Shown here: in pieces, positions 1,868 through 20,862 of the stretch
Position numbering within the stretch: position 1 is the stretch's first letter
Layout of the letters: each line of letters starts with the position of its first letter
Source of the DNA: a virus
Length of the DNA stretch: 64,000 bases
Virus record (IMG/VR): IMGVR_UViG_3300045988_165521
Reading direction: 5' to 3' (one strand)
Notes under the pieces: generated by a model
What the model was told of the DNA's origin: nothing
Databases searched by the model: none
The model's input: only the letters and a program-made list of their open reading frames with translations
Made by a program: the position numbers and the translations under genes

Positions 1868-1939
1868 GATGTATTAGCTCAGTGGTAGAGCTCTGGCAAG
1901 GAGTGCCAGAAGTCATAGGTTCGAATCCTATATGCATCC
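1868..1939 (+). tRNA. tRNA-like gene with aberrant anticodon loop AAGGAGT (nominal anticodon GGA, no U33); isotype undetermined
   Basis: Acceptor GATGTAT/ATGCATC, D-arm GCTC-AGTGGTA-GAGC, anticodon stem CTGGC/GCCAG, T-arm ATAGG-TTCGAAT-CCTAT. The variable loop is short, so it is not Ser-type. Confidence 0.6.
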
Positions 1940-2149
1940 CTTAAATCAAAAAATTATGATTATACCTCCAAATTTTTTAGTTAAAACTATTCCACTATAT
2001 AGTGAAGGAGATGTATCTACTCCACATGTAGTAATAAATTATCTTACAAGAAGTCTATTTTTATTCTTTTAAAATTTCCTCCGAATTGGAAATTGATAAA
2101 AGTTAAAGAAATAAAAGATAGAATTTTTATTAAAAATCTTGATTATAAG

Positions 2150-4115: not shown

Positions 4116-4369
4116 ACAAAATTGAAAAGCTGTACAGGTCTATGTATGAAAATGAATTACGTAAACTAAGAAAATGTGCAGAATCTGTTCAAAAACCTTC
4201 TCAATATGTTGTATTTAAAGCATGGAGTAAGGAAGTAATGGCTTACTTGTTTTTTAAAATAGATCGTTTAGATTATACTTGGGAATGGGAATATAAGGAT
4301 AAAATTGCAATGTTTATTCAGGATTGTCAAGAAATTGCTTTGCGAAAAGTAAAACTTAGTTCTAAATGA
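4112..4369 (+). CDS. hypothetical protein
   Basis: 85-aa ORF ending at a TGA within an ATGA overlap. Confidence 0.5.
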   Translation: MNKIEKLYRSMYENELRKLRKCAESVQKPSQYVVFKAWSKEVMAYLFFKIDRLDYTWEWEYKDKIAMFIQDCQEIALRKVKLSSK

Positions 4370-6346: not shown

Positions 6347-6678
6347 TGACTTTTAAAGAATTTTGTAAAGAACTATTAGAGGAGTATGGATATATAATAT
6401 TTCAATATGATAGTGTTATTTCTTTTACTCAAACTTTTCCTGATACAACTTGTGGATTAGGTGGAATAGGAGGACAAGCATTTACTGATGCTCAAATATT
6501 TATATTTGTTGATCAAAGTAATAGAAATGCTATTGTAATTGGTCCTGCATGGAGTTATTACATAGAAGGTATTACTGAAAAATTTTCAGTAGATTGTTGT
6601 AACCATCATATGGCTGGAATTAATAATATTGCAAGAATTAAAAAATATGGTGACATTAAAGAAATTAAAAGAGCTTAA
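6346..6678 (+). CDS. hypothetical protein
   Basis: 110-aa ORF. Confidence 0.5.
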   Translation: MTFKEFCKELLEEYGYIIFQYDSVISFTQTFPDTTCGLGGIGGQAFTDAQIFIFVDQSNRNAIVIGPAWSYYIEGITEKFSVDCCNHHMAGINNIARIKKYGDIKEIKRA

Positions 6679-7051
6679 GCAGATTAAGCGAGATAATAAG
6701 GTAATTTATAATTTGTTAAATACTATCATTGGAGAGTGTGAACAGATTAGTAAAGATCCTTCTTGTAGTCAGGTTATGGATGTTATACAGAAAATGTATA
6801 AAGATAATAAACAGACTATTAGTGAATGTTCGGTGGATAGAGTTGATCAACTTAATACCCTAAACGAAGAAAATGCTTTCCTTGAGAGTTATTTACCTCA
6901 ACCTCTTACTAAGGAGGAATTAACTGCACTTATTGGTTCACAATTAACTGCAGGTAACAATATGTCAAAAATTATGAAATATCTTTCAGAAGAATATAAA
7001 GGAAGATATGATGGCAAAGTTGCAGTAGAAATTATTAAATCCTTACAATAA
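6629..7051 (+). CDS. YqeY/GatB C-terminal-domain-like protein (start uncertain; ATG 6650 possible)
   Basis: FLESYLPQPLTKEELTALI......NMSKIMKYL....KGRYDGKVAVEIIKSL fits the YqeY family pattern. Confidence 0.65.
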   Translation: MQELKNMVTLKKLKELKQIKRDNKVIYNLLNTIIGECEQISKDPSCSQVMDVIQKMYKDNKQTISECSVDRVDQLNTLNEENAFLESYLPQPLTKEELTALIGSQLTAGNNMSKIMKYLSEEYKGRYDGKVAVEIIKSLQ

Positions 7052-7413
7052 TGTTAATTGTATTTATTATAATATTCATAGCTTTATATGAACTAATAAC
7101 AGTTATGTATTATGAAAGTCTTAAGATAAGACTTGTCAAAGTAGGCGCTTTTATAGATCATCTTAATACTTTTGGTTCTACAGAAGATAAACAAATTTTC
7201 TATAAGTTTTTAAAAGAAGTTAATACAGAATCTATTAGATGCAATGCTAAACTTGATATAACTATAGAAAATGCAAGTAAACCTGAACTTTGGTACAGAT
7301 ATCCTTCAAATCCTAATACCTTTAAAGAGTGTTTCAAACTTTTTAATTTATGTTTTTATCGAAATGTAGTTAAAGATTCAGTTGATAAAATAATTAACTG
7401 GTTTAAGAAATAA
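7051..7413 (+). CDS. hypothetical protein (N-terminal TM helix)
   Basis: 120-aa ORF. Confidence 0.5.
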   Translation: MLIVFIIIFIALYELITVMYYESLKIRLVKVGAFIDHLNTFGSTEDKQIFYKFLKEVNTESIRCNAKLDITIENASKPELWYRYPSNPNTFKECFKLFNLCFYRNVVKDSVDKIINWFKK

Positions 7414-7417
7414 AAAT

Positions 7418-7636
7418 ATGAAATTTTTACTTTGTCTAATTTGTTTAATTACAGTTAGTTGTAATGCTGTAATTGATCCTAAGTCAGAAACTATAAGATC
7501 TGAAGATGGATACTATATTGGTACTGCACATAAATTTAAGTTTGAAGGACATGATTATATTAGTTTTACTAAAGGTCATGGTGTAGCAGTTGTTCATAAT
7601 CCTAAATGTCATTGTAATCTAAATGAAGACTATTAA
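7418..7636 (+). CDS. putative lipoprotein
   Basis: Signal peptide with lipobox-like LITVSC. Confidence 0.5.
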   Translation: MKFLLCLICLITVSCNAVIDPKSETIRSEDGYYIGTAHKFKFEGHDYISFTKGHGVAVVHNPKCHCNLNEDY

Positions 7637-7811
7637 AACATATTGCCCAGAATGTGACAAAGAAACAGTTCATATAATTTGGACGGAGGATGCATATGGA
7701 GCTTCTGGTGTAGCTAGAATCTTTTCAACTTTACTTTCTGTTGGAATGTCAAACTTAGCTTGTACTACATACAGTAAGTGTATTAGTTGTGGAAATACTA
7801 AAGAATTATAA
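7623..7811 (+). CDS. small zinc-ribbon protein
   Basis: CPEC...CISC pairs. Confidence 0.45.
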   Translation: MKTIKTYCPECDKETVHIIWTEDAYGASGVARIFSTLLSVGMSNLACTTYSKCISCGNTKEL

Positions 7812-7812
7812 A

Positions 7813-8076
7813 ATGATTAATGACCAAATTAAAAAGTTAGCTAATAAAAAGATTCCATTATATAATAACTCTTCTAGTTTATATGATATTTTGGATTGGC
7901 TGCGGGAGAAAAAATTCCTACATGTAGAGATACAATGGTATCCTCATGGTTGGATGTTTGTTATTTATAAAATTGATTCTCAAGAGGATGAACCATATGA
8001 TACTTTCTCTGAAGTATATACTAGTTATCTAAATTGTTTAGAAGCTGGAATTATAAGAGCATTAAATATTATATAA
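7813..8076 (+). CDS. hypothetical protein (tandem paralog of 8079)
   Basis: LYDILDWLREKKFLHVEIQWYPHGW parallels LHDILDELRDKESLHVEIGWHPNGY. ATG 7813 was chosen to avoid overlap. Confidence 0.55.
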   Translation: MINDQIKKLANKKIPLYNNSSSLYDILDWLREKKFLHVEIQWYPHGWMFVIYKIDSQEDEPYDTFSEVYTSYLNCLEAGIIRALNII

Positions 8077-8078
8077 TT

Positions 8079-8294
8079 ATGAAAAATACAGGTTTACATG
8101 ATATTCTGGATGAACTAAGAGATAAAGAGTCTTTACATGTAGAAATCGGATGGCATCCTAATGGATATGCATACTCTATTTATAGAATTAATAGGCGAGA
8201 TACAGAGCCGTGTTATGCTTCTTCTGAAAGATACCATAATTATCGGGAATGCTTAGGAGCGGCAATTGTAAAAGCAATGAACTTGGCGGATTAA
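8079..8294 (+). CDS. hypothetical protein (tandem paralog of 7813)
   Basis: See 7813. Confidence 0.55.
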   Translation: MKNTGLHDILDELRDKESLHVEIGWHPNGYAYSIYRINRRDTEPCYASSERYHNYRECLGAAIVKAMNLAD

Positions 8295-8299
8295 TAAAA

Positions 8300-8719
8300 A
8301 TGAAAACATTACTTTGGGTGGACGATGCTCGTAATCCTCTTGAGAATGATTGGTTAAATTTTAGTCCTATCGGTCGAAACTGTTTTGTAATATGGGCGCA
8401 AACTTATCAAGAAGCAATACAATTTCTTGAAAAAGACTGGCCTGATGCAATTTGTCTTGATCACGATTTAGGAGAAGAAGAAAGCGGTTATGATATAGCT
8501 AAATATATTGTAAATCGTTGTATTGATGAGGGAAAGAAACTTCCATTATTTGCAAGTCAATCTGCAAATCCTGTAGGTAGAGAGAATATCTTAAGATTGT
8601 TTAAAAATTATCAAAAACAGGAATTATTAGAACATGTTCAAGAAGCAGTTCAATATAAACATGATTGGTTAAATGCTGTTGAAAATGGTACAGAAATTCC
8701 CAAAAAGAGACGAATGTAG
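8300..8719 (+). CDS. receiver(REC)-like domain protein
   Basis: LLWVDD...DAICLDHDLG...GYDI pattern. The assignment is weak. Confidence 0.4.
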   Translation: MKTLLWVDDARNPLENDWLNFSPIGRNCFVIWAQTYQEAIQFLEKDWPDAICLDHDLGEEESGYDIAKYIVNRCIDEGKKLPLFASQSANPVGRENILRLFKNYQKQELLEHVQEAVQYKHDWLNAVENGTEIPKKRRM

Positions 8720-9032
8720 AATTCTTTATCATATAACCTTAAAAGAAAATTTAGATAGTATTTTAGATAAAGGACTTATTCCAGATATTGGTTCTCAGTG
8801 TACTCATTGTAAAAATGATAATCCAACTGAGAAGTTAGTTTATATGACTGATTTAGAAGGAATTGCTAAATGGAAGAAAGCGTTATATGGTAATAGTAAT
8901 TCTTGTGTAATTCTTGAAGTTAATACTCTTAATCTTGAAATAATCTATCGCAGAAAGTTTGTTGAAGGAACTGAATATGCATGTAAAGAAACTATTTTAC
9001 CTGACAGATTAAAGATTATAACTCTTAAATGA
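8685..9032 (+). CDS. hypothetical protein
   Basis: ORF ending at a TGA within an ATGA overlap. Start uncertain. Confidence 0.4.
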   Translation: MVQKFPKRDECRILYHITLKENLDSILDKGLIPDIGSQCTHCKNDNPTEKLVYMTDLEGIAKWKKALYGNSNSCVILEVNTLNLEIIYRRKFVEGTEYACKETILPDRLKIITLK

Positions 9033-9217
9033 AAAATTTTATTCAACATGTTGTTTATAGTCATAGAGAGGGATTACGTTGGTACTTTAAATCAACAGAG
9101 CGTAAAGGTACATTTGTAATTTCTTTATATCCTTGGGATATTAGACTTTTAAAATATGGACTTTATTTACTAATTCCACCTCTTAAAGAGACTCATATTA
9201 AAGGCAACTGGAATTAA
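9029..9217 (+). CDS. hypothetical protein
   Basis: 62-aa ORF. Confidence 0.35.
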   Translation: MKNFIQHVVYSHREGLRWYFKSTERKGTFVISLYPWDIRLLKYGLYLLIPPLKETHIKGNWN

Positions 9218-9226
9218 AAAAGGTAT

Positions 9227-9309
9227 GCCCACGCAGCAGAGTTGGAGATCTGCACGAAACTGTAAATTTCGCGTCTCAGACTAATGAGGTTCGAATCCTC
9301 ACGGGGGCA
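9227..9309 (+). tRNA. tRNA-Tyr (anticodon GTA)
   Basis: Anticodon arm CGAAA-CTGTAAA-TTTCG, long variable arm (bacterial type II), T-arm TGAGG-TTCGAAT-CCTCA. There is one A-G mismatch in the acceptor stem. Confidence 0.8.
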
Positions 9310-9332
9310 CAAAATAATAAAAATTGCAAATA

Positions 9333-9854
9333 ATGAAAAATTTTCAAGTAACTTCAAAAGAAGATAATCAAAAATACTGGATTTCGAGGTCTTGTGCAGT
9401 TGCTATGTTTCTATTTTCTAGAGATAAATTTGGAAACTTATGTATTTTAGCAAATAAACGTGGTACTGGAACTCCTGATTTTCAAGGATATTGGAATTGT
9501 CCTTGTGGTTATATAGACTTTGATGAAACTGGAGAAGATGCCGTTTGCAGAGAAATTATGGAAGAAACAGGATATGTAATTACTCCTGAAGTTCCTAAAT
9601 TTGTAGAGGTTGAAACAAGTCCAAAGGCTAATAAGCAAAATATTACTCTTAGATATACTGCTTTAGTACCTTATAAATTACTTTCTCAAGTTAAACCTAT
9701 TGGAGGCGAAGATAATGAAGTTGAAGAGGTTAAATGGATTGATATAAGAAAATTAAACAACTATAAATGGGCATTTAATCACAACAAAATAATTGAAAGA
9801 ATTATACTTTTAAAACAATATATACAAAATGACAGACATAAACACTTTAGCTAA
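9333..9854 (+). CDS. NUDIX hydrolase
   Basis: Nudix box GYIDFDETGEDAVCREIMEETGY. Confidence 0.8.
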   Translation: MKNFQVTSKEDNQKYWISRSCAVAMFLFSRDKFGNLCILANKRGTGTPDFQGYWNCPCGYIDFDETGEDAVCREIMEETGYVITPEVPKFVEVETSPKANKQNITLRYTALVPYKLLSQVKPIGGEDNEVEEVKWIDIRKLNNYKWAFNHNKIIERIILLKQYIQNDRHKHFS

Positions 9855-10386
9855 AAGTGGTTGGTATGAAACTAATCACGATAAGTATAAGTATGTTTAC
9901 TTAGAGCTTGATTATAGTAAAAAAATTAACAAGTTTGTATTTTCAGGCTGTTTAAGCCCTCAAGGGTTAGCTTATTTTCCACTTCCTAATCAAATTTATA
10001 GAGAACCAGATAGTGGAAATATGTTTTGTATCCCTTTTACATTATTTTCGCTTGTAAAATTTTGTGACGGGACTTTACTTCCACTAGTTTTAACTGAAGA
10101 CTTAGTAAAAAGGTACGCAGATCCTGAAAATATTGTTCTAACTTCTTTATGTATTAATATCTCTCGTTATGCAAGTAGTTTAGACTTTAGTACTATTCAT
10201 CTTACTCGAGATACTCCTTTAAGAAATCTCTTGAGTGAAGAGGCATTAAGAGTTGTTACTGGTAGTATGTTTGATTATTTTATGATAAGTGTATTAGAAC
10301 ATAAGAAGGAGTTTGATGAGCTTAACACTTCTCATTCAAATATAGAGTCTTTCATTAAGGTAATCTTAAAAATAATAGACTTATAA
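9829..10386 (+). CDS. hypothetical protein
   Basis: 185-aa ORF. Confidence 0.5.
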   Translation: MTDINTLAKSGWYETNHDKYKYVYLELDYSKKINKFVFSGCLSPQGLAYFPLPNQIYREPDSGNMFCIPFTLFSLVKFCDGTLLPLVLTEDLVKRYADPENIVLTSLCINISRYASSLDFSTIHLTRDTPLRNLLSEEALRVVTGSMFDYFMISVLEHKKEFDELNTSHSNIESFIKVILKIIDL

Positions 10387-10387
10387 A

Positions 10388-10705
10388 ATGTTTACTTTTA
10401 TTATTCTTTATTTTTTAAACTTAGTTCTAGATTATCCATTGCAAGGAACATTTCTTGCAGAATATAAATGTAAAAATAATTATATTTTATTTGTTCATTG
10501 TGCTATTTGGGCATTAGGTATTTATATTGCTTTATATTTTCTAGGGCTAGCTACAGTTTGGAAACTTGTAATGTTATTAGTTGGACATTATCTTATTGAC
10601 TACTGGAAATGTAGAGGCTTATATAAGAAATATATGAAAGACTTTACCGCTTATTATATTGATCAAAGTCTTCATATTGTTCAGGTTCTACTTTGTTTAA
10701 TATAA
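10388..10705 (+). CDS. hypothetical membrane protein
   Basis: Three hydrophobic segments. Confidence 0.5.
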   Translation: MFTFIILYFLNLVLDYPLQGTFLAEYKCKNNYILFVHCAIWALGIYIALYFLGLATVWKLVMLLVGHYLIDYWKCRGLYKKYMKDFTAYYIDQSLHIVQVLLCLI

Positions 10706-10732
10706 AACAAGTTCTATAAAAACTTGTTTTTT

Positions 10733-10821
10733 GGAGAGTTGGGGGAGTTGGCTTAACCCATCGTCCTGCTAAGACGACGTACCTCAAAAGGGTGCCACTA
10801 GTTCGAATCTAGTACTCTCCG
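10733..10821 (+). tRNA. tRNA-Ser (anticodon GCT)
   Basis: Acceptor GGAGAGT/ACTCTCC, anticodon arm TCGTC-CTGCTAA-GACGA, long variable arm. Confidence 0.85.
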
Positions 10822-10836
10822 CAAATTTAAAATAAC

Positions 10837-11103
10837 ATGAGTAAACTAATAATTAATAAACATCAAATTTGTTATATACCAGAATACAATTTATATTTAC
10901 AGAGAGTAGGAGTAGATAATACAAGCGTTCGTCATACTTGTGAACGTATATGTTCGATTTATCAGATCTGTAGGTATGGTTATTGTCGTAATAAGACTAT
11001 AGACCCACATTATGGTAATCATGGTTGCGCAGATAACGGAGAGCAAGACGCTTATAAAATTATTTGTTATAGAATATACTTAGAACCTATAGAATGGAAA
11101 TAG
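10837..11103 (+). CDS. Cys-rich small protein, tRNA-array paralog family (distal copy)
   Basis: Many Cys and the tail AYKIICYRIYLEP. It lies directly after tRNA-Ser. Confidence 0.5.
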   Translation: MSKLIINKHQICYIPEYNLYLQRVGVDNTSVRHTCERICSIYQICRYGYCRNKTIDPHYGNHGCADNGEQDAYKIICYRIYLEPIEWK

Positions 11104-11852
11104 CAAATTTAAAGGTATATAATGATAATATGCGAAAATCACTTTTAGATAAAGCATATTTTCTATCTTTTGTAGATTCGGATACGTTCATTGATTTTGG
11201 ATGTGCTGATGGATCTTTATTAAAATATATTCATGAGATGTTTCCTGATAAGAAACTAATTGGATATGATATATCTCCTGAAATGCTTCAAGTTGCAGAA
11301 AAGAATCTTGAAGGATGTAATGTTTCTTTATATAATAATTTTGAAAACGTTATATCCTTAAAGTTAGATAATGCTACTTTAATACTTTCTTCTGTTATTC
11401 ATGAAGTTTATAGTTACGGTGATAATCAAAGTGTAAATGAATTTTGGAGACAAGTTTTTAATGAAAACTTTAGATATATTGCTATTCGAGATTTAACTCC
11501 TCGAAAATCAATTGATAGAATGTCTGATATTAATGATGTTTCTAGAGTTTTACATAATGCTAATCCCACACATTTAGCTGAGTTTCAATCTATTTGGGGA
11601 AATATTAGTAACAATAAAAATCTAGTTCATTTCCTTATGAAATATAAATGGGTTGAAAATTGGGCTAGAGAAGTTAGAGAAAATTATTTTCCAATAACTA
11701 TCGAAGAGTTTTTATCAAAAGTTCCTAATAACTATGTTATTGATTATTTTTACGAATTTATTATGCCTCAAACTCAGCAAGGAATTCTTAAAGATTTTAA
11801 TATCCTATTAAAGGATACAACACACTTCAAATGCATTTTAAGAAAAATATAA
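11094..11852 (+). CDS. SAM-dependent methyltransferase
   Basis: Motif I FIDFGCADGSL. Confidence 0.6.
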   Translation: MEIANLKVYNDNMRKSLLDKAYFLSFVDSDTFIDFGCADGSLLKYIHEMFPDKKLIGYDISPEMLQVAEKNLEGCNVSLYNNFENVISLKLDNATLILSSVIHEVYSYGDNQSVNEFWRQVFNENFRYIAIRDLTPRKSIDRMSDINDVSRVLHNANPTHLAEFQSIWGNISNNKNLVHFLMKYKWVENWAREVRENYFPITIEEFLSKVPNNYVIDYFYEFIMPQTQQGILKDFNILLKDTTHFKCILRKI

Positions 11853-11853
11853 T

Positions 11854-12144
11854 ATGAAAGTAGTACAAGTAAATGTGGATTACACTGAAGAAGTTAATTC
11901 TTCGAATAAGAATTGGTTAAATTCTGATTCTAGGCATTGTGATATCTTAGTTAGAAGTGATGATGCAGAAACTATTAAGTATAGTGGAACTTTATCTCAA
12001 TCACAAGTAGAACATATCGTGTTTCTAATTCAAGATAATTATTCTGGAAAAGATATTAAAGATCAAATTATCGAATATGAAGTTCAAAATCTATCTCCTA
12101 CAGTAACTTCTCAGATTGGAGATCCTGAATTTTTAGAAGAATAA
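11854..12144 (+). CDS. hypothetical protein
   Basis: 96-aa ORF. Confidence 0.45.
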   Translation: MKVVQVNVDYTEEVNSSNKNWLNSDSRHCDILVRSDDAETIKYSGTLSQSQVEHIVFLIQDNYSGKDIKDQIIEYEVQNLSPTVTSQIGDPEFLEE

Positions 12145-12166
12145 TAGAGAGATTTACTCTCTATTT

Positions 12167-12253
12167 GCCCTCGTGATGGAACTGGCAGACATGCCGCTCT
12201 TAGAAAGCGGTCTGAAGTAATAGTAGGGTGCAGGTTCAAATCCTGTCGAGGGC
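12167..12253 (+). tRNA. tRNA-Leu (anticodon TAG)
   Basis: Acceptor GCCCTCG/CGAGGGC, anticodon arm CCGCT-CTTAGAA-AGCGG, long variable arm, discriminator A. Confidence 0.85.
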
Positions 12254-12298
12254 ACTCTAATAGCTTCCTATCTTGGAGGCATTTTCTATTTTATAGAT

Positions 12299-13042
12299 AT
12301 GTTTAAGTTTATTAAAAAGATGTTTAACAATAGAAATATTCTAACTAAAAACTTATATAAAGTAAAGTTAGATAAATATGATGAAGCTCTGATTATTATT
12401 TGTAAAGCTTTAGGAGTAAACTTACTAAAAGCAAATTTCTTCCATATAGATTCTTATACAAAAGTAATGAAATCATATGGCTCTTTGATAACTATTATTG
12501 ATTTTGATAATGCTATTGATTTAATTTTTGGTAATTTAAGTTCTAAAAGAAATCATGACGAAATTGTTTTACAATACATGATTAAGGTTATGCAGCTTCC
12601 TTCTAGTGTTATTGATAATGATAGATTTTATCGTAGTATTCATAGGACCTTTAATAAGATTTCTGTGTATTATTCTAAAGAAGATAAATTTACATGGTTT
12701 CAAGAATATTGTCAAAAATTTATAAAACCTGAATGGTCTAATTCTTTTTGCTTTTACTATAAATCTGCAGAATTTTATGTAACTTTTTATCAAGGATATT
12801 TTAAATATAAACGTAAACAGGAAGACTATCGAAGAAAAAGTAGAGAGAATTATCAATCTCAAAAACAACCTAATATAAATGAGTATTATAGAATACTTGG
12901 AATTAATATTACTAAAGATAAGGCTATTATCAAAACTGCTTATCGTAAGTTGTGTTTTCAGTATCATCCTGATAAAGGAGGCTCTAAGGAAAAGTTTATT
13001 GAAATTAATCAAGCATATGAATATTTAATTACACATGTCTAA
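12299..13042 (+). CDS. J-domain (DnaJ-like) protein
   Basis: C-terminal YYRILGI...AYRKLCFQYHPDKGG with the HPD motif. Confidence 0.8.
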   Translation: MFKFIKKMFNNRNILTKNLYKVKLDKYDEALIIICKALGVNLLKANFFHIDSYTKVMKSYGSLITIIDFDNAIDLIFGNLSSKRNHDEIVLQYMIKVMQLPSSVIDNDRFYRSIHRTFNKISVYYSKEDKFTWFQEYCQKFIKPEWSNSFCFYYKSAEFYVTFYQGYFKYKRKQEDYRRKSRENYQSQKQPNINEYYRILGINITKDKAIIKTAYRKLCFQYHPDKGGSKEKFIEINQAYEYLITHV

Positions 13043-13295
13043 AATGTATAAATTAATGAGTCTTAAAGGCTATAACGGGCCTGAAGATGTAATAAAACTT
13101 CAAGAATGGTTAGCTATAGAAAAACAAATATTTATTGAGACAAGAGTGTGTTGGAATAAAGAAGGAACTTTCCCTATTGGATATAGTGCAAGAGCTTGGA
13201 TGCCTCCGTATATATTATATACAGTAGCTCCAACAGAATTAACTATTGAAGAAGCAGTTATGGCAATTCTAGCAAGAATTTATGATTATATTTAA
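13035..13295 (+). CDS. hypothetical protein
   Basis: 86-aa ORF. Confidence 0.45.
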   Translation: MSKMYKLMSLKGYNGPEDVIKLQEWLAIEKQIFIETRVCWNKEGTFPIGYSARAWMPPYILYTVAPTELTIEEAVMAILARIYDYI

Positions 13296-13346
13296 ATAAT
13301 CTTGCTCCCGTAGTTCAAGGGATAGAAATTAATTTTTGATTCGAAC

Positions 13347-13378
13347 TTTGTATTTTTAATAAAATTTTTGTATCTTTG
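13347..13378 (+). promoter_or_regulatory. Bacteroidota-type promoter (TTTG-N20-TATCTTTG) for the HNH gene
   Basis: TTTG 13347-13350 and TAnnTTTG box 13371-13378, 28 nt upstream of ATG 13406. Confidence 0.55.
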
Positions 13379-13405
13379 TGTACGAAAATTTTAAATATAA
13401 AATAT

Positions 13406-14017
13406 ATGATAAGTTGAAAATTAGAAAAAGAAAATTTAATTAAGTTCCTTATTGATGAAAAATTAAGTTTTGAAGAAGTAGGTCGTAAGTATAAATGTAG
13501 TGGTAGCAATATTAGAAAAGTAGCACAACGTTTAAATATAATTGTTCCTTCTAGAAGAGCAGTAAATCCATGCGAAACTTTTAGAAGAGGAACTGCTAAA
13601 AAAGGTATCTGTAAGAACTGTGGAAAAGAATTTATATTATATTTATCTCATAGCGGAATTTATTGTAGTAGTAAATGTCAACAAGAGTACCAATCTAAGA
13701 AAAGATATGAATTAATTCTTAATGGAGATCCTTCTATTATGAGAGCTAATTATAACCCTAGATCATCTAAGAAGTATATATTAGAGGAACAGAATAATAA
13801 ATGTGCCATTTGTGGGATGGAACCCAGTTGAAATGGGAAAGAGTTAGTTTTTATTTTAGATCATATTGACGGTCATGCTTCTAATAATAAAAGAGATAAT
13901 TTAAGATGTATATGTCCTAATTGCGATTCTCAGTTGGATACTTACAAATCTAAAAATAAAAACGGAGACAGATATTATTATAGATACTATAAAAGTAGGA
14001 GTGACCAGAATGGATAA
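13406..14017 (+). CDS. HNH homing endonuclease (free-standing; 2 in-frame TGA)
   Basis: A single frame with TGA at 13415 and 13829. LDHIDGHASNN...NLRCICPNCDS motif. It is a paralog of ORF 4721, and its 3' end overlaps tRNA 13995 by 23 nt. Confidence 0.75.
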
Positions 14018-14081
14018 TGGACCAGACTTCTAATCTGGCGAGCTGCAATGCTCATTGCGGGTTCGACTCCCGCCTCCTATA
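13995..14081 (+). tRNA. tRNA with anticodon TCT (nominally Arg) but a type II long-variable-arm architecture
   Basis: Acceptor GTAGGAG/CTCCTAT (G1-U72), anticodon arm CCAGA-CTTCTAA-TCTGG, 18-nt variable region containing hairpin GAGC-TGCAAT-GCTC, T-arm GCGGG-TTCGACT-CCCGC, discriminator A. Confidence 0.7.
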
Positions 14082-14097
14082 CTAAATAAATATAACT

Positions 14098-14370
14098 ATG
14101 ATATTATATAAAGTTCAGAAATACTTTCCTACAGATTTTTCACAAAATTTTATAGAATGTAATATTTGTTCTATAGACAATTTTGAAAGAGAAAGTATAA
14201 AACATGCTATTCGCGATGGTCTTAAACCACATATTTGTTCAGGCATGTGTAGAGAATGTAATAATTTTATAGGTTTGATTGGAGTAGATCTTGAAAAACG
14301 AACAGGAACTGTAATATGTTCTCATAAAAATTATTACAGACTTGAATTTGATGAAAACGAAGGTGCATAA
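14098..14370 (+). CDS. hypothetical Cys-rich protein
   Basis: 90-aa ORF. Confidence 0.45.
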   Translation: MILYKVQKYFPTDFSQNFIECNICSIDNFERESIKHAIRDGLKPHICSGMCRECNNFIGLIGVDLEKRTGTVICSHKNYYRLEFDENEGA

Positions 14371-14380
14371 ATTATTATAT

Positions 14381-15238
14381 ATGAAATTATACGATTCAAC
14401 TGAAAACACATTTCATTGGGAAAAATTAGATTTAATCCCTGAAATAGAAAAACTAAAACGAATACCTCAAAATGAAATATGGCACAAAGAGGGTAATGCT
14501 TTTGTACATACTTGTATGGTTGTACAAAGTGCATTAGATCATATTTCAAATGAAACTATTGATTATTTAGCATCACCTGAAATTAGAGAAATTTTAGTAT
14601 ATGCTGCTTTATTGCATGATGTTGGCAAAGCTTTTACAACAAAGAAAGGAGAAGATGGCCTATATCATGCAAGTAACCATGCAATTAAAAGTGCAGAAAT
14701 TGCAAAAGATTTATTAGTTAAGTTAGAAGTAGATAAACATTTACATACAGCAATTATTTCATTAGTTCGCTGGCATATGCAGCCTATGTATATTCTTGAA
14801 CAGACAAATCCTGAAAAAGCTATACTAAAACTAGCTAATAATCTTAATGAAGTAAATGTAGAACTTTTAATTCTACTAAAACAATGTGATTGTGAAGGTT
14901 CAATCTACGATAAGGATGATCATCGAGACGAAATACTCCAAAAGGTAAGAGAGATTTATTATGATAAAATTACTTACAAACGTGGAGAAACCGTTAAAAT
15001 TACTAAGTTATCAGATAATGATACTTGTAGTTATGTTCCAGGACATCATCCTAATGGAATTAATACTGGATATGAAAAAATAGGTAGGCTAATTGAACCT
15101 ATTACAAAAGGACATAGAGTATATCTAGGACTTGGATTCTCTACATCTCCTGTTGTAGAAATTGTTAGCAAAAATTGTTTTAAAACAAGAAATTCTGTAT
15201 ATGAAATTACAGAAGTTTGTAAAACTACAGAAAAATAA
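14381..15238 (+). CDS. HD-domain phosphohydrolase
   Basis: H...LLHDVGK...H motifs. ATG 14381 was chosen. Confidence 0.6.
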   Translation: MKLYDSTENTFHWEKLDLIPEIEKLKRIPQNEIWHKEGNAFVHTCMVVQSALDHISNETIDYLASPEIREILVYAALLHDVGKAFTTKKGEDGLYHASNHAIKSAEIAKDLLVKLEVDKHLHTAIISLVRWHMQPMYILEQTNPEKAILKLANNLNEVNVELLILLKQCDCEGSIYDKDDHRDEILQKVREIYYDKITYKRGETVKITKLSDNDTCSYVPGHHPNGINTGYEKIGRLIEPITKGHRVYLGLGFSTSPVVEIVSKNCFKTRNSVYEITEVCKTTEK

Positions 15239-15249
15239 AATTTAATATA

Positions 15250-16029
15250 ATGCGTTATTTATTAGTAAAAACCGAAAACATGCCTATTTTGGCTCTGGCT
15301 CTTGGAAGTCTAGATTACAAAGCTGGAAACTCACCTATTTTTCCTATTGCATTTGGAGAATTCTCAATTTTAATTGATAAGGAGGATAAAACATTCTTCT
15401 ATGTTAAAGGTCGAAAAGAAATTGATAAATTTGTTGAAGATCATGCTAAAATCTATACAACTAATGATTTATCACATGCTCTTGAATTTCTTAAGGAAGA
15501 CGAAGATGAGGAAACCGATAAGTCTGAAGAAGATAAAGAGGAGATCGATCTTAAAACTATTTTTGAACATCCTTTAATGCAGGTTTTTAGTCGGCATATT
15601 CCTAAAGAGATTTTGGCTAAGTGTATTATGGAAGCTAAAGAAGAACGAGAACAGGAAGAAGAAAACGCTGCAGAGGAAAAATCTGAAGATAAAGAGTCTA
15701 ACTTCCATAAAGAGTTGGTACCTGGACGAATCGTTCAGTTTGAAAATGCAGGTATGATTCGGTATGGAATTGTACTTAGTAATGGTACAGTAATGCACTT
15801 TTCAGGAAGTAATTTAGCTGCTTCAGGATATATTAATAATATTACTGAAGATCGTCCTTATAGAGTTGTACGTATTCTTAAGCCTACAAGTAAATATTAC
15901 AATCTAAAGGATGTAAGTAATATGGAAGTAGCTTGGGAACGTAAAGTTCGCAAACCTAAAGTTACTAAAACAATAACCGAGATTGAAAAGGAATTAGGGC
16001 TTGCTCCTGGTTCGTTAGTCATTGAATAA
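15250..16029 (+). CDS. hypothetical protein with an acidic low-complexity centre
   Basis: 259-aa ORF. Confidence 0.5.
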   Translation: MRYLLVKTENMPILALALGSLDYKAGNSPIFPIAFGEFSILIDKEDKTFFYVKGRKEIDKFVEDHAKIYTTNDLSHALEFLKEDEDEETDKSEEDKEEIDLKTIFEHPLMQVFSRHIPKEILAKCIMEAKEEREQEEENAAEEKSEDKESNFHKELVPGRIVQFENAGMIRYGIVLSNGTVMHFSGSNLAASGYINNITEDRPYRVVRILKPTSKYYNLKDVSNMEVAWERKVRKPKVTKTITEIEKELGLAPGSLVIE

Positions 16030-16057
16030 GAGGGATTAATTCCCTCTTTTTGTTTTT
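16029..16057 (+). terminator. Rho-independent terminator
   Basis: AGAGGGA-TTAAT-TCCCTCT followed by TTTTTGTTTTT. Confidence 0.7.
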
Positions 16058-16063
16058 ATAAGT

Positions 16064-16201
16064 ATGGGTAAGTTTATTCGGGATTATCAAGTTGGTAAGA
16101 CATTTAGTAAAGAAGAGGAAACTTTTAAGCCTAATCGTAAAAAGGTAAAAAAGTTTAAAGACCCTGAAAAACGTGAAAAGAAACAATCTAAAAAAGATTA
16201 A
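16064..16201 (+). CDS. small basic protein
   Basis: 45-aa Lys-rich ORF. Confidence 0.35.
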   Translation: MGKFIRDYQVGKTFSKEEETFKPNRKKVKKFKDPEKREKKQSKKD

Positions 16202-16204
16202 AAG

Positions 16205-17245
16205 ATGACATATGGATTGAACGATATTTGTTTAGTACCTGCTAGGATTAGTGATATTGAACATCGTGAACAATGTAATCCATATAATGCTGATAATATG
16301 CTCCCGTTGTTTACTGCTCCTATGAGTTCAGTAATTAACGAGAGCAATTATCAGGTATTTATGGATAATAAAATAAATACTATAATTCCTCGTTCAGTAG
16401 ATTTATCTACTAGATATGAGTTAATGTCAAAAACTTTTGTGGCCTTAAGTTTATCTGAATTTGAAACATTTGCAGGTCTAGAATTAGGTGAAATTAAGGA
16501 GGAAGAAATATTTTATATATGCGTAGATATTGCTAATGGTCATATGCGTAAGCTTATTGATCTTTGTAAATCTGTAAAACAGAAATATGGAGGTCATGTT
16601 ATACTAATGGCAGGCAATATTGCAAATCCTGATACTTATATAGATTATGCCTTAGCTGGTATTGATTTTGTACGTGTTGGAATTGGTGGTGGATCAGTAT
16701 GTACTACTTCTGCAAATGGAGGAGTTCATTATGCTATGGCTTCTTTAATTAAAGAGGTTGTAGATCGTAAGTGGGAGATAGAAAAAGCAATTAAAGATGC
16801 AGAAGCTATGCGTATTTCCCATAAATATGAGTCTTTGCCATTTATTGTAGCTGATGGAGGATTTGATAATTATGATAAGATTATTAAAGCGTTAGCATTA
16901 GGTGCAGATTATGTAATGGTAGGCAAAATCTTTGCTCAAGCAGAAGAAGCTTGTGGTAAAGTAATAGAACATTGGGTACGAGGAGAGTATATTGCTCGAG
17001 ACCGAGTTTATTATGGGATGTCTACTAAAAAAGCTCAAGTAGAAACTGGAAGTCAAAAATTAAAAACAGCAGAAGGAATAGAAGTTACAGTACCTATTTT
17101 GTATCCTTTAAGTGGATGGTGTGAGAATTTTGTTCATTATCTTCGATCAATGATGAGTTATACAAACTCTTTTACACTTAGTGATTTTAAAAATACAGAA
17201 TATCGTATTGTTAGTCCTTCTGAATATTTATCATATTATAAGTAA
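16205..17245 (+). CDS. guaC: GMP reductase-like (IMPDH/GMPR family)
   Basis: 346 aa, with CVDIANGH, VGIGGGSVCTT, ADGG, GADYVMVG, YYGMS and AEG matching GuaC landmarks. Confidence 0.7.
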   Translation: MTYGLNDICLVPARISDIEHREQCNPYNADNMLPLFTAPMSSVINESNYQVFMDNKINTIIPRSVDLSTRYELMSKTFVALSLSEFETFAGLELGEIKEEEIFYICVDIANGHMRKLIDLCKSVKQKYGGHVILMAGNIANPDTYIDYALAGIDFVRVGIGGGSVCTTSANGGVHYAMASLIKEVVDRKWEIEKAIKDAEAMRISHKYESLPFIVADGGFDNYDKIIKALALGADYVMVGKIFAQAEEACGKVIEHWVRGEYIARDRVYYGMSTKKAQVETGSQKLKTAEGIEVTVPILYPLSGWCENFVHYLRSMMSYTNSFTLSDFKNTEYRIVSPSEYLSYYK

Positions 17246-18420
17246 TGGCAGAGATAATTTATTGTAAATTAACTGAAACTAGATCTCGAAGAACTTGGCA
17301 AATATTGCCTAAGCAGTATTTTCCTGACAAAACTCCTGTTTATGAATTAGCTGTATCTATTTCTCAGTATACAATTGATAGGGTACAACATCCTTTTGAT
17401 TGTATAGTTGGATTATATGCTAAACAGCTAAATTTTGCATCAACACAAAAGTATTATTCTTATTCTGGAGACGTATATTCAATAGCGGATAATCCTGAGG
17501 CAGATTCTGGATATCAAAAATACCTTAAAAATAGGGATAAGACTCCTGAAGAAATAGAAGAGGAAGAAGCTAAATTAAAGTCAAAAGTTTTATATCAAAT
17601 TAAAAATAATCCTGATATAGTTCCTATGTCTATTGATAAAGATGGTTTCTATATTAAGGATGAAACTTTTTATCTACTTACTCGAAATATTTATAAACGT
17701 GTAAATACAATGCTAACTGGTCCTACTGGATCTGGTAAAACACAAGTAGTAGAATTAATTTGTAAGCAATTAGGACTTCCTTGTACTATTTATGATATGG
17801 GTGCCATGCATGATCCTATATCAGACTTACTTGGTGTTCATCGTCTCGAAGAGGGGAAGTCTATCTTCGACTATGCTAAATTTACTCAAGATGTTCAAAA
17901 ACCTGGAGTTATTGTTTTAGATGAGCTGTCGCGTGCGCCTGCTACCTGCCTCAATATACTTTTTCCTGCTCTTGACCATCGTAGGACTTTGCCTGTAGAA
18001 ATTGCAGGTTCTAAGGATATTCGTGAAATTCCTATTCATCCTGAAGTATGCTTTATATCAACTTGTAATATTGGTATTGAATATACTGGTACCTCAACTC
18101 TTGATAAAGCATTAAAGAATCGTTTCTTCCCAATTGAATTTACATATCTTCCTGCAGACATTGAAGCTCGAGTTCTCATGAAGAGATGTGATATTGAGAA
18201 ACAGGATGCTGATATGATTACTTCTATTGCTGCTAAACTTCGTAGGATGGCAGAAAATGCAGAGGCTGCAACTACAGTATCAACTCGAGAAACTTTAATG
18301 ATTGCAGAATTAATTCATGATGGATGGTCAACATTAGATGCATTAAATTATGTATTAATTCCACTATGTGATAGTAAAGAGTCTCGAGAATTAGTACGAA
18401 AATTGTTAATGAGTAAATAA
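17245..18420 (+). CDS. AAA+ ATPase, CobS/MoxR-like
   Basis: Walker A GPTGSGKT, Walker B VLDELSRA. Confidence 0.6.
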   Translation: MAEIIYCKLTETRSRRTWQILPKQYFPDKTPVYELAVSISQYTIDRVQHPFDCIVGLYAKQLNFASTQKYYSYSGDVYSIADNPEADSGYQKYLKNRDKTPEEIEEEEAKLKSKVLYQIKNNPDIVPMSIDKDGFYIKDETFYLLTRNIYKRVNTMLTGPTGSGKTQVVELICKQLGLPCTIYDMGAMHDPISDLLGVHRLEEGKSIFDYAKFTQDVQKPGVIVLDELSRAPATCLNILFPALDHRRTLPVEIAGSKDIREIPIHPEVCFISTCNIGIEYTGTSTLDKALKNRFFPIEFTYLPADIEARVLMKRCDIEKQDADMITSIAAKLRRMAENAEAATTVSTRETLMIAELIHDGWSTLDALNYVLIPLCDSKESRELVRKLLMSK

Positions 18421-18421
18421 T

Positions 18422-20368
18422 ATGTCATTTACTGACTGGTTTGGGCGTAAAGGTAAGAATTATACATCTACTTATAAAGGATCTACTCGTTTAGGGTGGG
18501 ATACTAAAGTAAGTGGATCGTATTCTTCTTTCTTTGCACCTGATTTAAACAAAAGAAAGCTTTTAAGAGATTCCTATCGTCACGCATGTGATATTAGGGA
18601 TATTATGGATATTCCAAGAAATATTCGAATACAGTTAAATGTAGACACAGAAACTTCATGTACAGATGGAAAAACAGTTATTGTTTCTACTAAAGTATAT
18701 GATGATAATAAAATCGATAATAATGTTAAATTAGATGTATTCTTAGGTACAACTATTCATGAATTTTCTCACATATTATATACAGATATGGCAGAAATTC
18801 GTAAAAATAGACCTAATAAGTTCCTTTTTAATCTGTTCAATACTATTGAAGATGAACGAATTGAATACAATACTACACAAAATTATCCTGGGTATGCTAA
18901 TTTTATTGGGCAAGCAAAATATTATTATTTTGATTTGTTATATAAAAAAGCTGAAAAACAGGATGATTTAATGGATGTATTACAAAACATTTTATATATT
19001 GTAAGATATCCTGCAAGAGTAGATACTAAGGTTATTTATCGACATCAGGTTTTGTTTGATAAAATTAAGAAAGTTCTTTGTGACTTTGGAAATAATTCTA
19101 AAGAAGCTTATGATAAAGCAGAAAAAATTTATAAGCTATTACTAGATTACTTTAAGTTCCCACCTCCTCCGCCTGAAGAACAACAAGAAGGAGATGAAGA
19201 ACAAGATCAATCTGATTCTAGTGAAGGACAGTCTGATTCAGGTGAAGGCCAAGAAGGATCAGACGGAAGTTCTGACCCTCAAAATTCTAAACAGTCTTCT
19301 CAAAAACAAGATTCTAAAGATAATGAAGGATCAGATAAGAATAGTAAAACACAAAGTTCTCCCAAAAGTGGTTCTGATGAGGGATCTGCGGGCAAAAAGA
19401 AACAAGAACCTATTAAAGCATATACTCAAGAAGAAATAAAACAGGCAGCTGAGAAATTAGCTGAACAAATGCGACGTTTAATTACTTCTAATACTTCTTT
19501 AAATAGTAATGAAATTAAAGATGAGTGGGATTCTAAAGAAATTGCTGATGAGTGTAAGCAAATAAAAGATGATGTTTTTATTGTAAAACAAGAAGATTAC
19601 GAAAGACGTTATAAAGCGGATTTTGATACAGTAAAACAACATATTAATGGTTTAGTTAATACTTTTAGCAAATTCTTTGTTGAACAGGAATATCGTTTAA
19701 CAGGAATGCGAAGAGGTGTGCTAGATACTAATAAATTAGCTGAAGCTTATCAAGCAGTAGAAACTGTCTATTCAAATAAGTTTAAACGTACTACTCCTGG
19801 TTTAGATGTTTGTGTATTGATTGATGAGAGTGGCTCTATGAGCGGAACTAATATCGCATCTGCAAGAAAATGTGCAATATTACTTAATGAGGTATTTTTA
19901 CGTTTAAAGCAATGTGACTTTTATGTTTATGGTCATACTGCAGATAATCGACATATGGGAGAAGTTACTATTAATGTATATCGTGATCACTGGAATAGGA
20001 ACCGTTATGCTTTAGGTAAAGTTGAAAGTTATTCTAATAACAAAGACTCTGTTGCTATTGAAGAGACATATAAAATGGTTAGAAAGCAAACTTCGAAACC
20101 ACTTTTAATGTTTGTAATTTCTGATGGAGCACCTAATGCATATGGTTTAAGAGGACAACCTGCTGTAGAGGAAGTTAAAAAGGTAGTAAATAGAATTGAA
20201 TCAAATGGAGATACTCTAGTTTGTCAAATTGCTATTGAAAGCCACTTCCGACCTCAGGATATGTTTAATCATTATGTTGTCATGACAGATATGAATACTT
20301 TTCCAAGTGACTTATCTGGATACGTTATGAATACGTTAATATCTAAACTTAAAAGAGTAGATGTTTAA
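18422..20368 (+). CDS. vWA-domain protein, CobT-like
   Basis: A central acidic Ser/Gln-rich tract and a C-terminal MIDAS DESGSMSG. Confidence 0.6.
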   Translation: MSFTDWFGRKGKNYTSTYKGSTRLGWDTKVSGSYSSFFAPDLNKRKLLRDSYRHACDIRDIMDIPRNIRIQLNVDTETSCTDGKTVIVSTKVYDDNKIDNNVKLDVFLGTTIHEFSHILYTDMAEIRKNRPNKFLFNLFNTIEDERIEYNTTQNYPGYANFIGQAKYYYFDLLYKKAEKQDDLMDVLQNILYIVRYPARVDTKVIYRHQVLFDKIKKVLCDFGNNSKEAYDKAEKIYKLLLDYFKFPPPPPEEQQEGDEEQDQSDSSEGQSDSGEGQEGSDGSSDPQNSKQSSQKQDSKDNEGSDKNSKTQSSPKSGSDEGSAGKKKQEPIKAYTQEEIKQAAEKLAEQMRRLITSNTSLNSNEIKDEWDSKEIADECKQIKDDVFIVKQEDYERRYKADFDTVKQHINGLVNTFSKFFVEQEYRLTGMRRGVLDTNKLAEAYQAVETVYSNKFKRTTPGLDVCVLIDESGSMSGTNIASARKCAILLNEVFLRLKQCDFYVYGHTADNRHMGEVTINVYRDHWNRNRYALGKVESYSNNKDSVAIEETYKMVRKQTSKPLLMFVISDGAPNAYGLRGQPAVEEVKKVVNRIESNGDTLVCQIAIESHFRPQDMFNHYVVMTDMNTFPSDLSGYVMNTLISKLKRVDV

Positions 20369-20387: not shown

Positions 20388-20422
20388 TTTACTACCTTTG
20401 CTGTATAACTAAAGGTAGTAAA
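20388..20422 (+). other. 12-bp hairpin immediately upstream of the suppressor tRNA
   Basis: TTTACTACCTTT-(11 nt)-AAAGGTAGTAAA with no T-run after it. It could be a processing or regulatory element. Confidence 0.4.
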
Positions 20423-20424
20423 AT

Positions 20425-20862
20425 GCGAGCTTAGTGTAATGGTAGCACAGCGGTCTTCGAATTGGAGCACGCTTGGCGTGAAAATTGTGGCAAATTCGGT
20501 AAAAGCGAAATAAGATGATAAAAATCATGCGAATCAGCTTTCTAAGAAAGTCTAAGGTCCCGAAATATGGATAGCTGATAATACCGAGCTAAATTAGAGT
20601 AAAATACAGTAGAGAACATAGGCTGTCTATGCCGTGTAAAATAGGCGGAGTGCTTAGTAGGTCGAAAATTAAAGCCGTACACTTCTCTATGTATCCTACT
20701 TTACTCTATAAATGTGTAGAGACTAAATGCCACACTTGTATATCAAGCTGATATAGTCCAGACCACAAACAGTAAAACTGGTAGTGAAAACTATAGTGGT
20801 AAGCAAAACCGTATTGTAGGGCTCCAAACCCTACGGTCTCTGTTCGAATCGGAGAGCTCGTG
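20425..20862 (+). tRNA. Intron-containing opal-suppressor tRNA (anticodon TCA after splicing; exons 20425-20457 and 20804-20862)
   Basis: 5' half: GCGAGCT TA GTGT-AATGGTA-GCAC A GCGGT CTT. 3' half: CAAA ACCGT, 25-nt extra arm, CTCTG-TTCGAAT-CGGAG, AGCTCGT, G. The spliced anticodon loop is CTTCAAA. Confidence 0.8.
20458..20803 (+). mobile_element. Group I intron (IC3-like, ORF-less) in the tRNA anticodon loop
   Basis: The 5' exon ends in U and the intron ends in G. Guide TTGGAG (20462-20467) pairs with CTT (P1, U-G wobble) and CAA (P10). Core-like motifs CAAATTCGG (20491) and GTGTAGAGACTAAATGCCAC (20714). Confidence 0.75.

Follow-up and report, generated by a model that had tools for sequence, protein, structure and literature searches.

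The stretch of DNA analysed here, called the window below, comprises 64,000 nucleotides (nt) of a 174,492-nt contig from a crAss-like phage (IMG/VR virus record IMGVR_UViG_3300045988_165521). It contains, at positions 20425-20862 of the plus strand, a transfer RNA (tRNA) gene with a UCA anticodon, the anticodon loop of which is interrupted by a group I intron. The 5' exon consists of the acceptor strand GCGAGCT, the D arm GTGT-AATGGTA-GCAC, A26, the stem strand GCGGT and the loop bases C32, U33 and U34 (CTT). The 3' exon supplies C35, A36, A37 and A38, the complementary strand ACCGT, an extra arm in the variable region, the T arm CTCTG-TTCGAAT-CGGAG, the acceptor strand AGCTCGT and G73 (position 20862); the CCA end is not encoded. 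The extra arm has the layout AT / TGTAGGG / CTCCAAA / CCCTACG / GT, with its loop at 20822-20828 and the CCA triplet of this loop at 20824-20826. The coordinates of the features are given in Table 1.

Table 1. Coordinates of the parts of the suppressor tRNA gene, of the adjoining endonuclease gene and of the phage's ordinary tRNA-Trp gene
Feature	Coordinates	Strand	Remarks
5' exon	20425..20457	+	near-identical exon also found in related contigs
Group I intron, 346 nt	20458..20803	+	between U34 and C35; U at -1, terminal G, P3/P7 core
3' exon	20804..20862	+	begins CAAA-ACCGT
Extra (variable-region) arm	20813..20837	+	25 nt; from sequence, ARAGORN and RNAfold
Free-standing HNH endonuclease open reading frame, 189 amino acids	20877..21446	+	HNH_4, E = 4.7e-5; two in-frame TGA
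Ordinary phage tRNA-Trp(CCA)	1406..1478	+	arm ACAGT-CTCCAAA-ACTGT, G1-U72, G73; anticodon 11 nt from T stem

The spliced RNA is 92 nt long. After in silico splicing, ARAGORN drew it as a five-arm cloverleaf with the anticodon UCA and labelled it tRNA-SeC(tca), solely owing to this anticodon. RNAfold returned the identical cloverleaf as the minimum-energy structure (-34.1 kcal/mol, z = -3.6), with the extra stem lengthened to nine pairs. The 25-nt variable region contains a stem-loop of 7-9 pairs, i.e. a hairpin of the class II type. A preliminary description, made from the sequence alone, had proposed that the UCA arm is followed by 2 nt, a 7-bp hairpin and 2 nt, and had suggested folding the spliced RNA as a check; both programs agree with this layout. 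On the 64-kb window itself, ARAGORN called 12 tRNAs, among which the unspliced suppressor gene did not figure, and the Rfam tRNA model did not detect it either.

The loop of the extra arm, CTCCAAA, matches in all seven bases the loop of the anticodon arm in the phage's own tRNA-Trp(CCA), and the two tRNAs have G73 and the G1-U72 pair in common, as had been pointed out in the same description. Its further statement, that deletion of 20450-20815 would leave a canonical tRNA-Trp, was reproduced in silico: the resulting 73-nt sequence was called tRNA-Trp(cca) by ARAGORN. All that this description stated about the sequence was thus confirmed. A lone identity of 7 nt noticed post hoc is weak evidence.

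The search for the same two-arm design and for covariation, which had also been suggested, was performed on viral contigs with two scans, one requiring CTCCAAA and one motif-free (GGTCTTCAAAACC-N4-34-GGTTCRA). From the two together, 60 different two-arm tRNA(UCA) of full length were obtained, some of them intron-bearing and others not. In an alignment of 38 members, 98.2% of the whole cloverleaf was paired. The extra stem showed changes on both sides at all five pairs while 90.5% of the cells were paired, and the T, C, C, A and A of the extra loop were each at least 90% conserved. At the level of sequence, the architecture of this RNA, its conservation and its covariation can be considered as established. 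The motif is carried by two scaffolds, one with the D arm GTGTAATGGTAGCAC, a 4-pair D stem and long linkers, the other with a D stem of 5-6 pairs, short linkers and 6-7 pairs in the extra stem. Most members have long linkers, of 4-6 and 3-4 nt. At 13 loci reached via a neighbouring gene encoding a VWA-domain protein (96-100% identical), the tRNA also occurs in two versions. They differ in the extra stem (TGTAGGG/CCCTACG or GGAG/CTCC), and CTCCAAA is present in both. An intron-less homologue (locus L062) was recognized by the Rfam tRNA model RF00005 with 61.6 bits (gathering score 29), the extra arm being aligned as a variable-region insert. In this contig, an ordinary tRNA-Trp(CCA) lies at 9071-9120 (+), 7 bases downstream of the two-arm suppressor, and its anticodon stem is identical to that of the suppressor's UCA arm (arm 1). 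The consensus sequences of the two arms have 12 of 13 core bases in common (GGTCTTCAAAACC versus GGTCTCCAAAACC), and the arrangement of the arms is compatible with their having arisen by tandem duplication of the anticodon arm. A BLAST search of GenBank phages with the family consensus gave only partial matches to ordinary tRNA-Trp genes.

In the motif-free scan, which was evaluated with a motif-blind hairpin finder, the extra loops were CTCCAAA (17 distinct sequences), GTCCAAA (14), TTCCAAC (3) and a few others. The raw script counts were 39 TCCAA and 41 TCCA among 48 long-armed tRNAs classed as 'other', and no TCCAA among 27 tRNAs classed as resembling selenocysteine tRNA ('Sec-like'). Seven rows were reclassified by eye: two that were not tRNAs were removed, two Sec-like ones were moved out, and three Trp-type ones with GTCCATA were moved in. 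After this, TCCA was present in 45/47 and TCCAA in 40/47 of the non-Sec long-armed tRNA(UCA), compared with 0/26 of the Sec-like tRNAs. TCCAA was also absent from the long-armed tRNAs for Leu (27), Ser (42) and Tyr (12) of the same loci (0/81). Identity of the loop by chance is excluded on these comparisons, because the motif is kept across dozens of divergent homologues with covarying stems and is absent from the control long-armed tRNAs; the pattern indicates that the extra loop is under selection.

A scan of a genome collection mostly returned genuine tRNA-Sec genes with UCCAA loops, as well as a few Trp-type two-arm genes on contigs of gut metagenome-assembled genomes. The latter tRNA(UCA) genes (loci L221, L235, L237, L238 and L250) lie on contigs binned to Coriobacteriia, Oscillospiraceae, Treponema and Bacilli, which are probably of phage or prophage origin. 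This is a hint that the design extends beyond the phages of Bacteroidota.

If the extra arm served a synthetase, it should match the reassigned amino acid, and suppressors of UAG would therefore be expected to carry a glutamine anticodon. A pattern requiring the Gln motif gave mostly ordinary tRNA-Gln, and a motif-free CUA scan (GGTCTCTAAAACC-N4-34-GGTTCRA) was used instead. It gave at least 109 distinct sequences, at least 31 of them with long variable regions. Among the 31 long-armed tRNA(CUA) listed, at least 22 had a hairpin of at least three pairs closed by a tRNA-Gln anticodon loop, with CUG or UUG (CTCTGAA, TTCTGAG/A, CCCTGAA, CTTTGAA, TTTTGAT), and at least five more carried a Gln loop on a 2-pair stem. 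None of the 31 had a CCA loop. Two of the four exceptions among the matches listed are Ser- or Leu-type class II scaffolds; seryl- and leucyl-tRNA synthetases (SerRS and LeuRS) do not read the anticodon. The stems of the amber suppressors vary (TCC/GGA, GCC/GGC, AGC/GCT, ATC/GAT, CCA/TGG, CCTACGG/CCGTAGG). When both sets were cross-tabulated, the UCA tRNAs had 46 CCA loops and 4 with a degenerate Gln motif, the figures for the CUA tRNAs among the matches listed being 0 and 22 (Fisher p = 8e-15, a value that is only indicative as the sequences are related). The amber members that were read (L394 and L438; others by eye) have a U1·U72 mismatch and G73. A weak 1-72 pair with G73 is of the Gln type. 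Examples of these amber tRNAs are found in loci L391-L491, e.g. at 4235-4325 (-) in L394 and at 7965-8054 in L438; in D arm and anticodon stem they are very similar to the UCA family. From their sequences, the UCA and CUA families give the impression of a single chassis on which acceptor identity and loop have been exchanged. The parallel Gln design of the UAG suppressors can, at this level, be taken as established.

Further evidence was obtained from the position of the copied anticodon. It lies 11 nt from the T stem in 48 of 58 UCA members (range 10-12), this spacing being kept as 2+5+4, 2+6+3 or 2+7+2, and in 17 of 24 CUA members among the matches listed (range 10-12), the stems of which have only about three pairs. 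The same 11 nt separate the anticodon from the T stem in 51/68 ordinary tRNA-Trp and 140/179 tRNA-Gln of the same loci, other class I tRNAs mostly having 12. Between arm 1 and the copied anticodon, the distance is not fixed (7-14). Arm 1 is joined to the D stem in the canonical manner (a single base between them), and the register of arm 2 relative to the T arm is canonical as well. The spacing to the T stem, which these counts establish, agrees with continuing selection on where the copied anticodon lies. The preliminary description had named folding in two registers as an alternative; the junction and spacing data would fit two alternative coaxial stackings rather than two secondary structures.

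We also compared the family with the known identity elements of tRNA-Trp. In E. coli and B. subtilis these comprise the acceptor pairs of the family consensus, AGGGGCU/AGCCCCU (A1-U72, G2-C71, G3-C70, G4-C69, G5-C68), together with G73 and C34 C35 A36 (PMC9976931). G73 is present in the window gene and in all 38 aligned members (invariant column G92). The acceptor stem of the window gene is G1-U72, C2-G71, G3-C70, A4-U69, G5-C68; the full Trp set is found in the family consensus. The decoding anticodon is U34 C35 A36 and not C34 C35 A36, CCA being found in the extra arm only; in the family, C34 is the sole major Trp determinant that the decoding arm lacks, and the full CCA is in the extra arm. 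The 5' half of the family consensus matches Bacillus phage genes annotated as tRNA-Trp. An identity for Ser, Leu or Tyr does not agree with the data, since the UGA sites align with Trp (see below) and the body and D arm match the phage tRNA-Trp. In these alignments, the loop tracks the Trp-type acceptor identity. In E. coli extract, 13 out of 13 phage tRNA(UCA) tested inserted Trp (PMC12636597).

The window itself indicates that TGA is read as Trp. When TGA was treated as a sense codon, the coverage by open reading frames (ORFs) of at least 100 amino acids was 0.87 instead of 0.71, and the longest ORF had 1480 amino acids, compared with 652 otherwise. In-frame TGA occurs in at least 30 ORFs of the window, and TGA-rich genes have few or no TGG. 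The block 5477-20368 is devoid of in-frame TGA. In-frame TGA aligned with Trp in ribonucleotide reductase (compared with 1xje), at two sites of an XPB-type helicase (compared with archaeal XPB), and in the DNA polymerase, where it corresponds to the W of EKTGQT-W in crAss polymerases. At the confidently aligned positions of distant homologues, TGA was never opposite Ser or Cys. The meaning of UGA as Trp can be taken as established from these alignments. A search of the PDB with the DNA polymerase gave no match, and crAss relatives were used for the comparison instead. This family A polymerase is about 63% identical to those of crAss-like phages of Suoliviridae, and the phage resembles the Zeta crAss-like group (Yutin et al.) in genome size, TGA recoding and the presence of introns. 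A Bacteroides host is plausible from the crAss-like affiliation. A near-identity search of GenBank phages with 12 kb around the gene gave no match, and a search for KMSKS (synthetase) and GGQ (release factor) motifs in the window, i.e. in 64 of about 174 kb, found nothing convincing.

We propose that the extra arm serves as a synthetase identity element: it would present the cognate sense anticodon to tryptophanyl-tRNA synthetase (TrpRS) in suppressors of UGA, or to glutaminyl-tRNA synthetase (GlnRS) in suppressors of UAG, arm 1 being used to read the stop codon. We consider this to be probably correct, with a fair margin for error, and presentation of the sense anticodon appears to be the most economical explanation of the comparative data. 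The window gene would be an opal suppressor built on a tRNA-Trp body, from which the group I intron would first splice out. Arm 1 (UCA) would decode UGA on the ribosome and the extra arm would display U-CCA-A, which bacterial TrpRS would read along with G73 and the acceptor stem. In this way, the host TrpRS would again charge the tRNA efficiently and specifically with Trp despite the loss of C34 from the decoding anticodon, the decoding anticodon and the identity anticodon being held in separate arms. The preliminary description had suggested that the CCA loop might still be a recognition element for TrpRS. The comparative side of this suggestion is strongly supported by the selection on the loop, the Trp-type acceptor stem, the glutamine parallel and the spacing; as to the charging mechanism, we infer from these data that the extra loop is bound by TrpRS or GlnRS.

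The arm could act as a fixed variable arm that reaches the anticodon-binding domain, or the two arms could exchange positions below the D stem while the tRNA is being charged. A more elaborate version of the latter is that these RNAs are 'two-headed' stop suppressors that switch coaxial stackings, the sense copy coming into the anticodon position for TrpRS or GlnRS and the stop arm for the ribosome. This idea is tentative, and we think it rather unlikely to be right in this form. If it were true, decoding and tRNA identity would be physically uncoupled, and any anticodon-reading synthetase could be served in the same way.

Several points speak against a role of the arm in charging. A variable arm exits the tRNA core in another direction than the anticodon arm, and could reach the anticodon-binding domain only if it were flexible or if the arms were swapped. 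The scans covered tRNAs with the anticodon stem GGT/ACC only, and the sequences are phylogenetically related, so that the counts overstate their independence. The arm is not obligatory, since 24 distinct (UCA) and at least 78 distinct (CUA) sequences with a short variable region were found in the scans, most of them ordinary class I suppressor tRNAs. The window's own arm, with 7-9 pairs and almost no linkers, is atypical of the two-arm family. The 8/5 tRNA-Sec of Caulobacterales and of some other bacteria (L222-L256) have variable-arm loops with UCCAA(AAGG), where a role of TrpRS is not expected, which is a caveat for the interpretation of UCCAA as a mimic of tRNA-Trp. Lastly, according to work cited in a preprint (bioRxiv 2021.08.26.457843), tRNA-Trp with a simple change of the anticodon is tryptophanylated in E. 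coli.

Other explanations must be weighed against these data. The extra arm could be a relic of a tandem duplication of the anticodon arm, retained only as a generic structural arm for stability, processing or the fit to EF-Tu or the ribosome, with a loop sequence devoid of function. The match of the consensus arms at 12 of 13 core bases fits a duplication, and class I relatives without the arm exist, but the stem sequence has been fully turned over while UCCAA has remained fixed, in two different scaffolds, and the 11-nt spacing to the T stem has been held while stem and linker lengths varied. Moreover, the amber family independently keeps Gln anticodons in its extra loop, and not a copy of CUA. 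We find it unlikely that the arm is such a relic. Another possibility is that both arms are used on the ribosome through alternative stackings, UGA being read via UCA and UGG via CCA, or UAG as well as CAG/CAA in the amber family. Arm 1 indeed follows the D stem after one base and arm 2 lies at the canonical 11 nt from the T stem, both loops have 7 nt with U33-like and A37-like bases, and the sequence from which arm 1 was deleted is called tRNA-Trp(cca). Yet many extra loops have a G at the equivalent of position 32 (GTCCAAA, 14 distinct sequences), and G32 is rare in working anticodon loops; the loop-closing pair is non-standard in 14 of 38 sequences, and the amber extra stem often has just 2-3 pairs among the matches listed. 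In addition, an anticodon with U34 is already able to read UGG by wobble, and a separate tRNA-Trp(CCA) is kept, both in the window and directly downstream of the suppressor in L062. Dual decoding is in our opinion improbable.

The exposed, anticodon-like and conserved loop could also be a decoy or a recruitment site for another protein that reads anticodon loops, such as a modifying enzyme, an anticodon nuclease of host defence or a regulator that senses tRNA. The existence in mRNAs of protein-binding mimics of the anticodon arm (PMC9976931) counts for such a role. Against it, the identity of the loop follows the reassignment (Trp for UGA, Gln for UAG) and co-occurs with the matching acceptor and discriminator features. 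We favour a synthetase because of this combination of loop and acceptor, a synthetase being the only factor known to read both ends. To our knowledge, no anticodon nuclease specific for tRNA-Trp or tRNA-Gln has been described, and we attach only a low probability to the decoy. The least probable explanation, to which we give hardly any weight, is that the gene encodes a selenocysteine- or serine-type tRNA, whose long arm and G73 recruit SerRS to make UGA mean Sec or Ser. It is suggested by the ARAGORN label, and a long variable arm and G73 are SerRS determinants (PMC7609411). The tRNA has, however, the 7/5 arrangement with a 4-pair D stem, as opposed to the 13-pair acceptor/T domain (8/5 in bacteria) and 6-pair D stem of tRNA-Sec (RF01852 type), and the Sec-like tRNAs of the same scan form a separate group with other arms and loops. 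The occurrence of TGA in so many ORFs of the window and its alignment with Trp, never with Ser or Cys, also disagree with this explanation. The relic, dual-decoder, decoy and Sec/Ser explanations are each less consistent with the data than recognition by a synthetase. Pairing of the extra loop with the intron was ruled out as the loop is kept in intron-less members, and pairing with the UGG of the D loop because it cannot account for the Gln loops.

The intron has a conserved P3/P7 core (AGACTAAAT ... GATATAGTCC). The match to the Rfam model Intron_gpI was weak (19.8 bits, E = 0.012, below the gathering score of 50); in the alignment the P3/P7 segments of the core were aligned and the 5' end was misaligned. 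The core resembles sequences in the genomes of crAss-like, Enterococcus and Agrobacterium phages. On inspection, splice-site features were present: the exon ends with CTT, and the intron begins with CGAATTGGAG and ends with GGTAAG. CUU/C can pair with GGAG a few bases into the intron, which places a U-G pair at the 5' splice site. Comparison of related genes gives the best evidence for the intron: intron-less orthologues have a contiguous GGTCTTCAAAACC at the insertion point, and related contigs have introns of 186-706 nt at the identical point or none, about half of the family being intron-less. The exons of L034 (606-nt intron) and L118 (intron-less) differ at a single base, so that precise removal of the intron is predicted to restore the gene. 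Because of the variable lengths, of the intron-less half of the family and of the near-identity of the L034 and L118 exons, the sequences indicate that the intron is a separate, mobile addition, outside the two-arm design. This does not agree with the preliminary description, according to which a tRNA-Trp had acquired a second, intron-bearing arm. Group I introns of bacterial and plastid tRNA-Leu(UAA) lie between U34 and A35, with U before the 5' splice site and a terminal G. The insertion point after U34 is common to these and to the suppressor intron, which differs by its host gene (a phage suppressor), by its sub-threshold Rfam score and by the adjoining free-standing HNH gene.

The HNH ORF starts directly downstream of the tRNA, is separate from the tRNA gene and has an N-terminal helix-turn-helix. 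It may be a free-standing homing endonuclease, or mobility partner, acting with the intron. In the two loci with the other suppressor version that were read (variant B, L003 and L006), other sequence is found where the window has the HNH ORF. An inverted repeat, ACTACCTTT-gctgtataact-AAAGGTAGT, lies at 20390-20422 (+), directly upstream of the suppressor, and is kept in variant-B loci; it was misaligned by Rfam as the intron P1 and is not followed by a terminator-like run of T. Although the VWA neighbour is 96-100% identical in L001-L013 (positions of about 8000-8460), two suppressor alleles are present in these loci. Their 5' exons are nearly equal, and the acceptor 3' strand, the T arm and the extra stem differ. 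This suggests that the 3' exon has been exchanged at the intron, e.g. by co-conversion during homing.

Upstream of the tRNA, at 16205-20368 (+), are genes for an IMPDH/GMP-reductase-like protein, a MoxR/CbbQ-type AAA ATPase and a VWA-domain protein, none with an in-frame TGA. Two other tRNA genes of the window are worth mentioning. The 'tRNA-Arg(tct)' at 13995-14082 (+) has 88 nt, a long variable arm (GAGC-TGCAAT-GCTC), A73 and G1-U72, which amounts to the anticodon UCU on a body of class II type; other loci contain three more variants of this design. The 'tRNA-Ser(gga)' at 1868-1940 (+) has only 73 nt, no long variable arm and a drawn anticodon loop without U33, and is probably a misassigned or unusual tRNA.

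The recoding of gut phages depends on host synthetases that normally read the anticodon that the suppressor has lost, and how these enzymes charge phage suppressors has been described as still to be answered (bioRxiv 2021.08.26.457843). Retaining the sense anticodon in a second arm would be a simple and directly testable solution, apparently used both for the change of UGA to Trp and of UAG to Gln. Many recoded phages have been reported without a detectable suppressor (Borges et al.; Yutin et al.; Seki et al.); the present design may partly explain these seemingly missing suppressors, the intron hiding the gene from ARAGORN in our case. It may also be a natural blueprint for suppressor or orthogonal tRNAs with an identity independent of the decoding anticodon. 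We found no earlier description of a second anticodon-like arm in the full-text literature on recoded phages and unusual tRNAs, most subscription journals being outside this coverage.

The closest known systems are the opal suppressor tRNA-Trp(UCA) of gut phages using code 4 (Borges et al. 2021/2022; Yutin et al. 2021; Seki et al. 2025), in which UCA is likewise found on a Trp-type body. The phages are also alike, being crAss-like and using TGA as Trp in part of their genes, presumably with the host TrpRS. The present suppressor differs by its second anticodon-like arm and its intron, which are not mentioned in these publications. Class II tRNAs (Ser, Leu and bacterial Tyr) and tRNA-Sec similarly have a hairpin in the variable region, and the idea that a synthetase reads this arm is common to both. 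In the class II and Sec arms, size and orientation matter, not the sequence of the loop (PMC9976931); in contrast, the loop is here the conserved part and copies a sense anticodon. The problem of reading UGA as Trp without losing recognition by TrpRS is also faced by UGA readers that keep CCA, i.e. the Hirsh suppressor (G24A in the D arm) and a tRNA-Trp(CCA) with a 4-pair anticodon stem (PMC13092985). In these it is the body of the tRNA that is altered, whereas here the decoding anticodon has been changed to UCA and a CCA copy is present elsewhere. Finally, the E. coli thrS operator and the yeast mRNA for aspartyl-tRNA synthetase (AspRS) contain mimics of anticodon arms, which are bound by their own synthetase under tRNA identity rules (PMC9976931). 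They resemble the extra arm in that a copy of the cognate anticodon loop lies outside the working anticodon position, a resemblance known here from the sequence. The thrS and AspRS mimics are regulatory elements of mRNAs, however, while the mimic described here is part of a tRNA that is itself the substrate.

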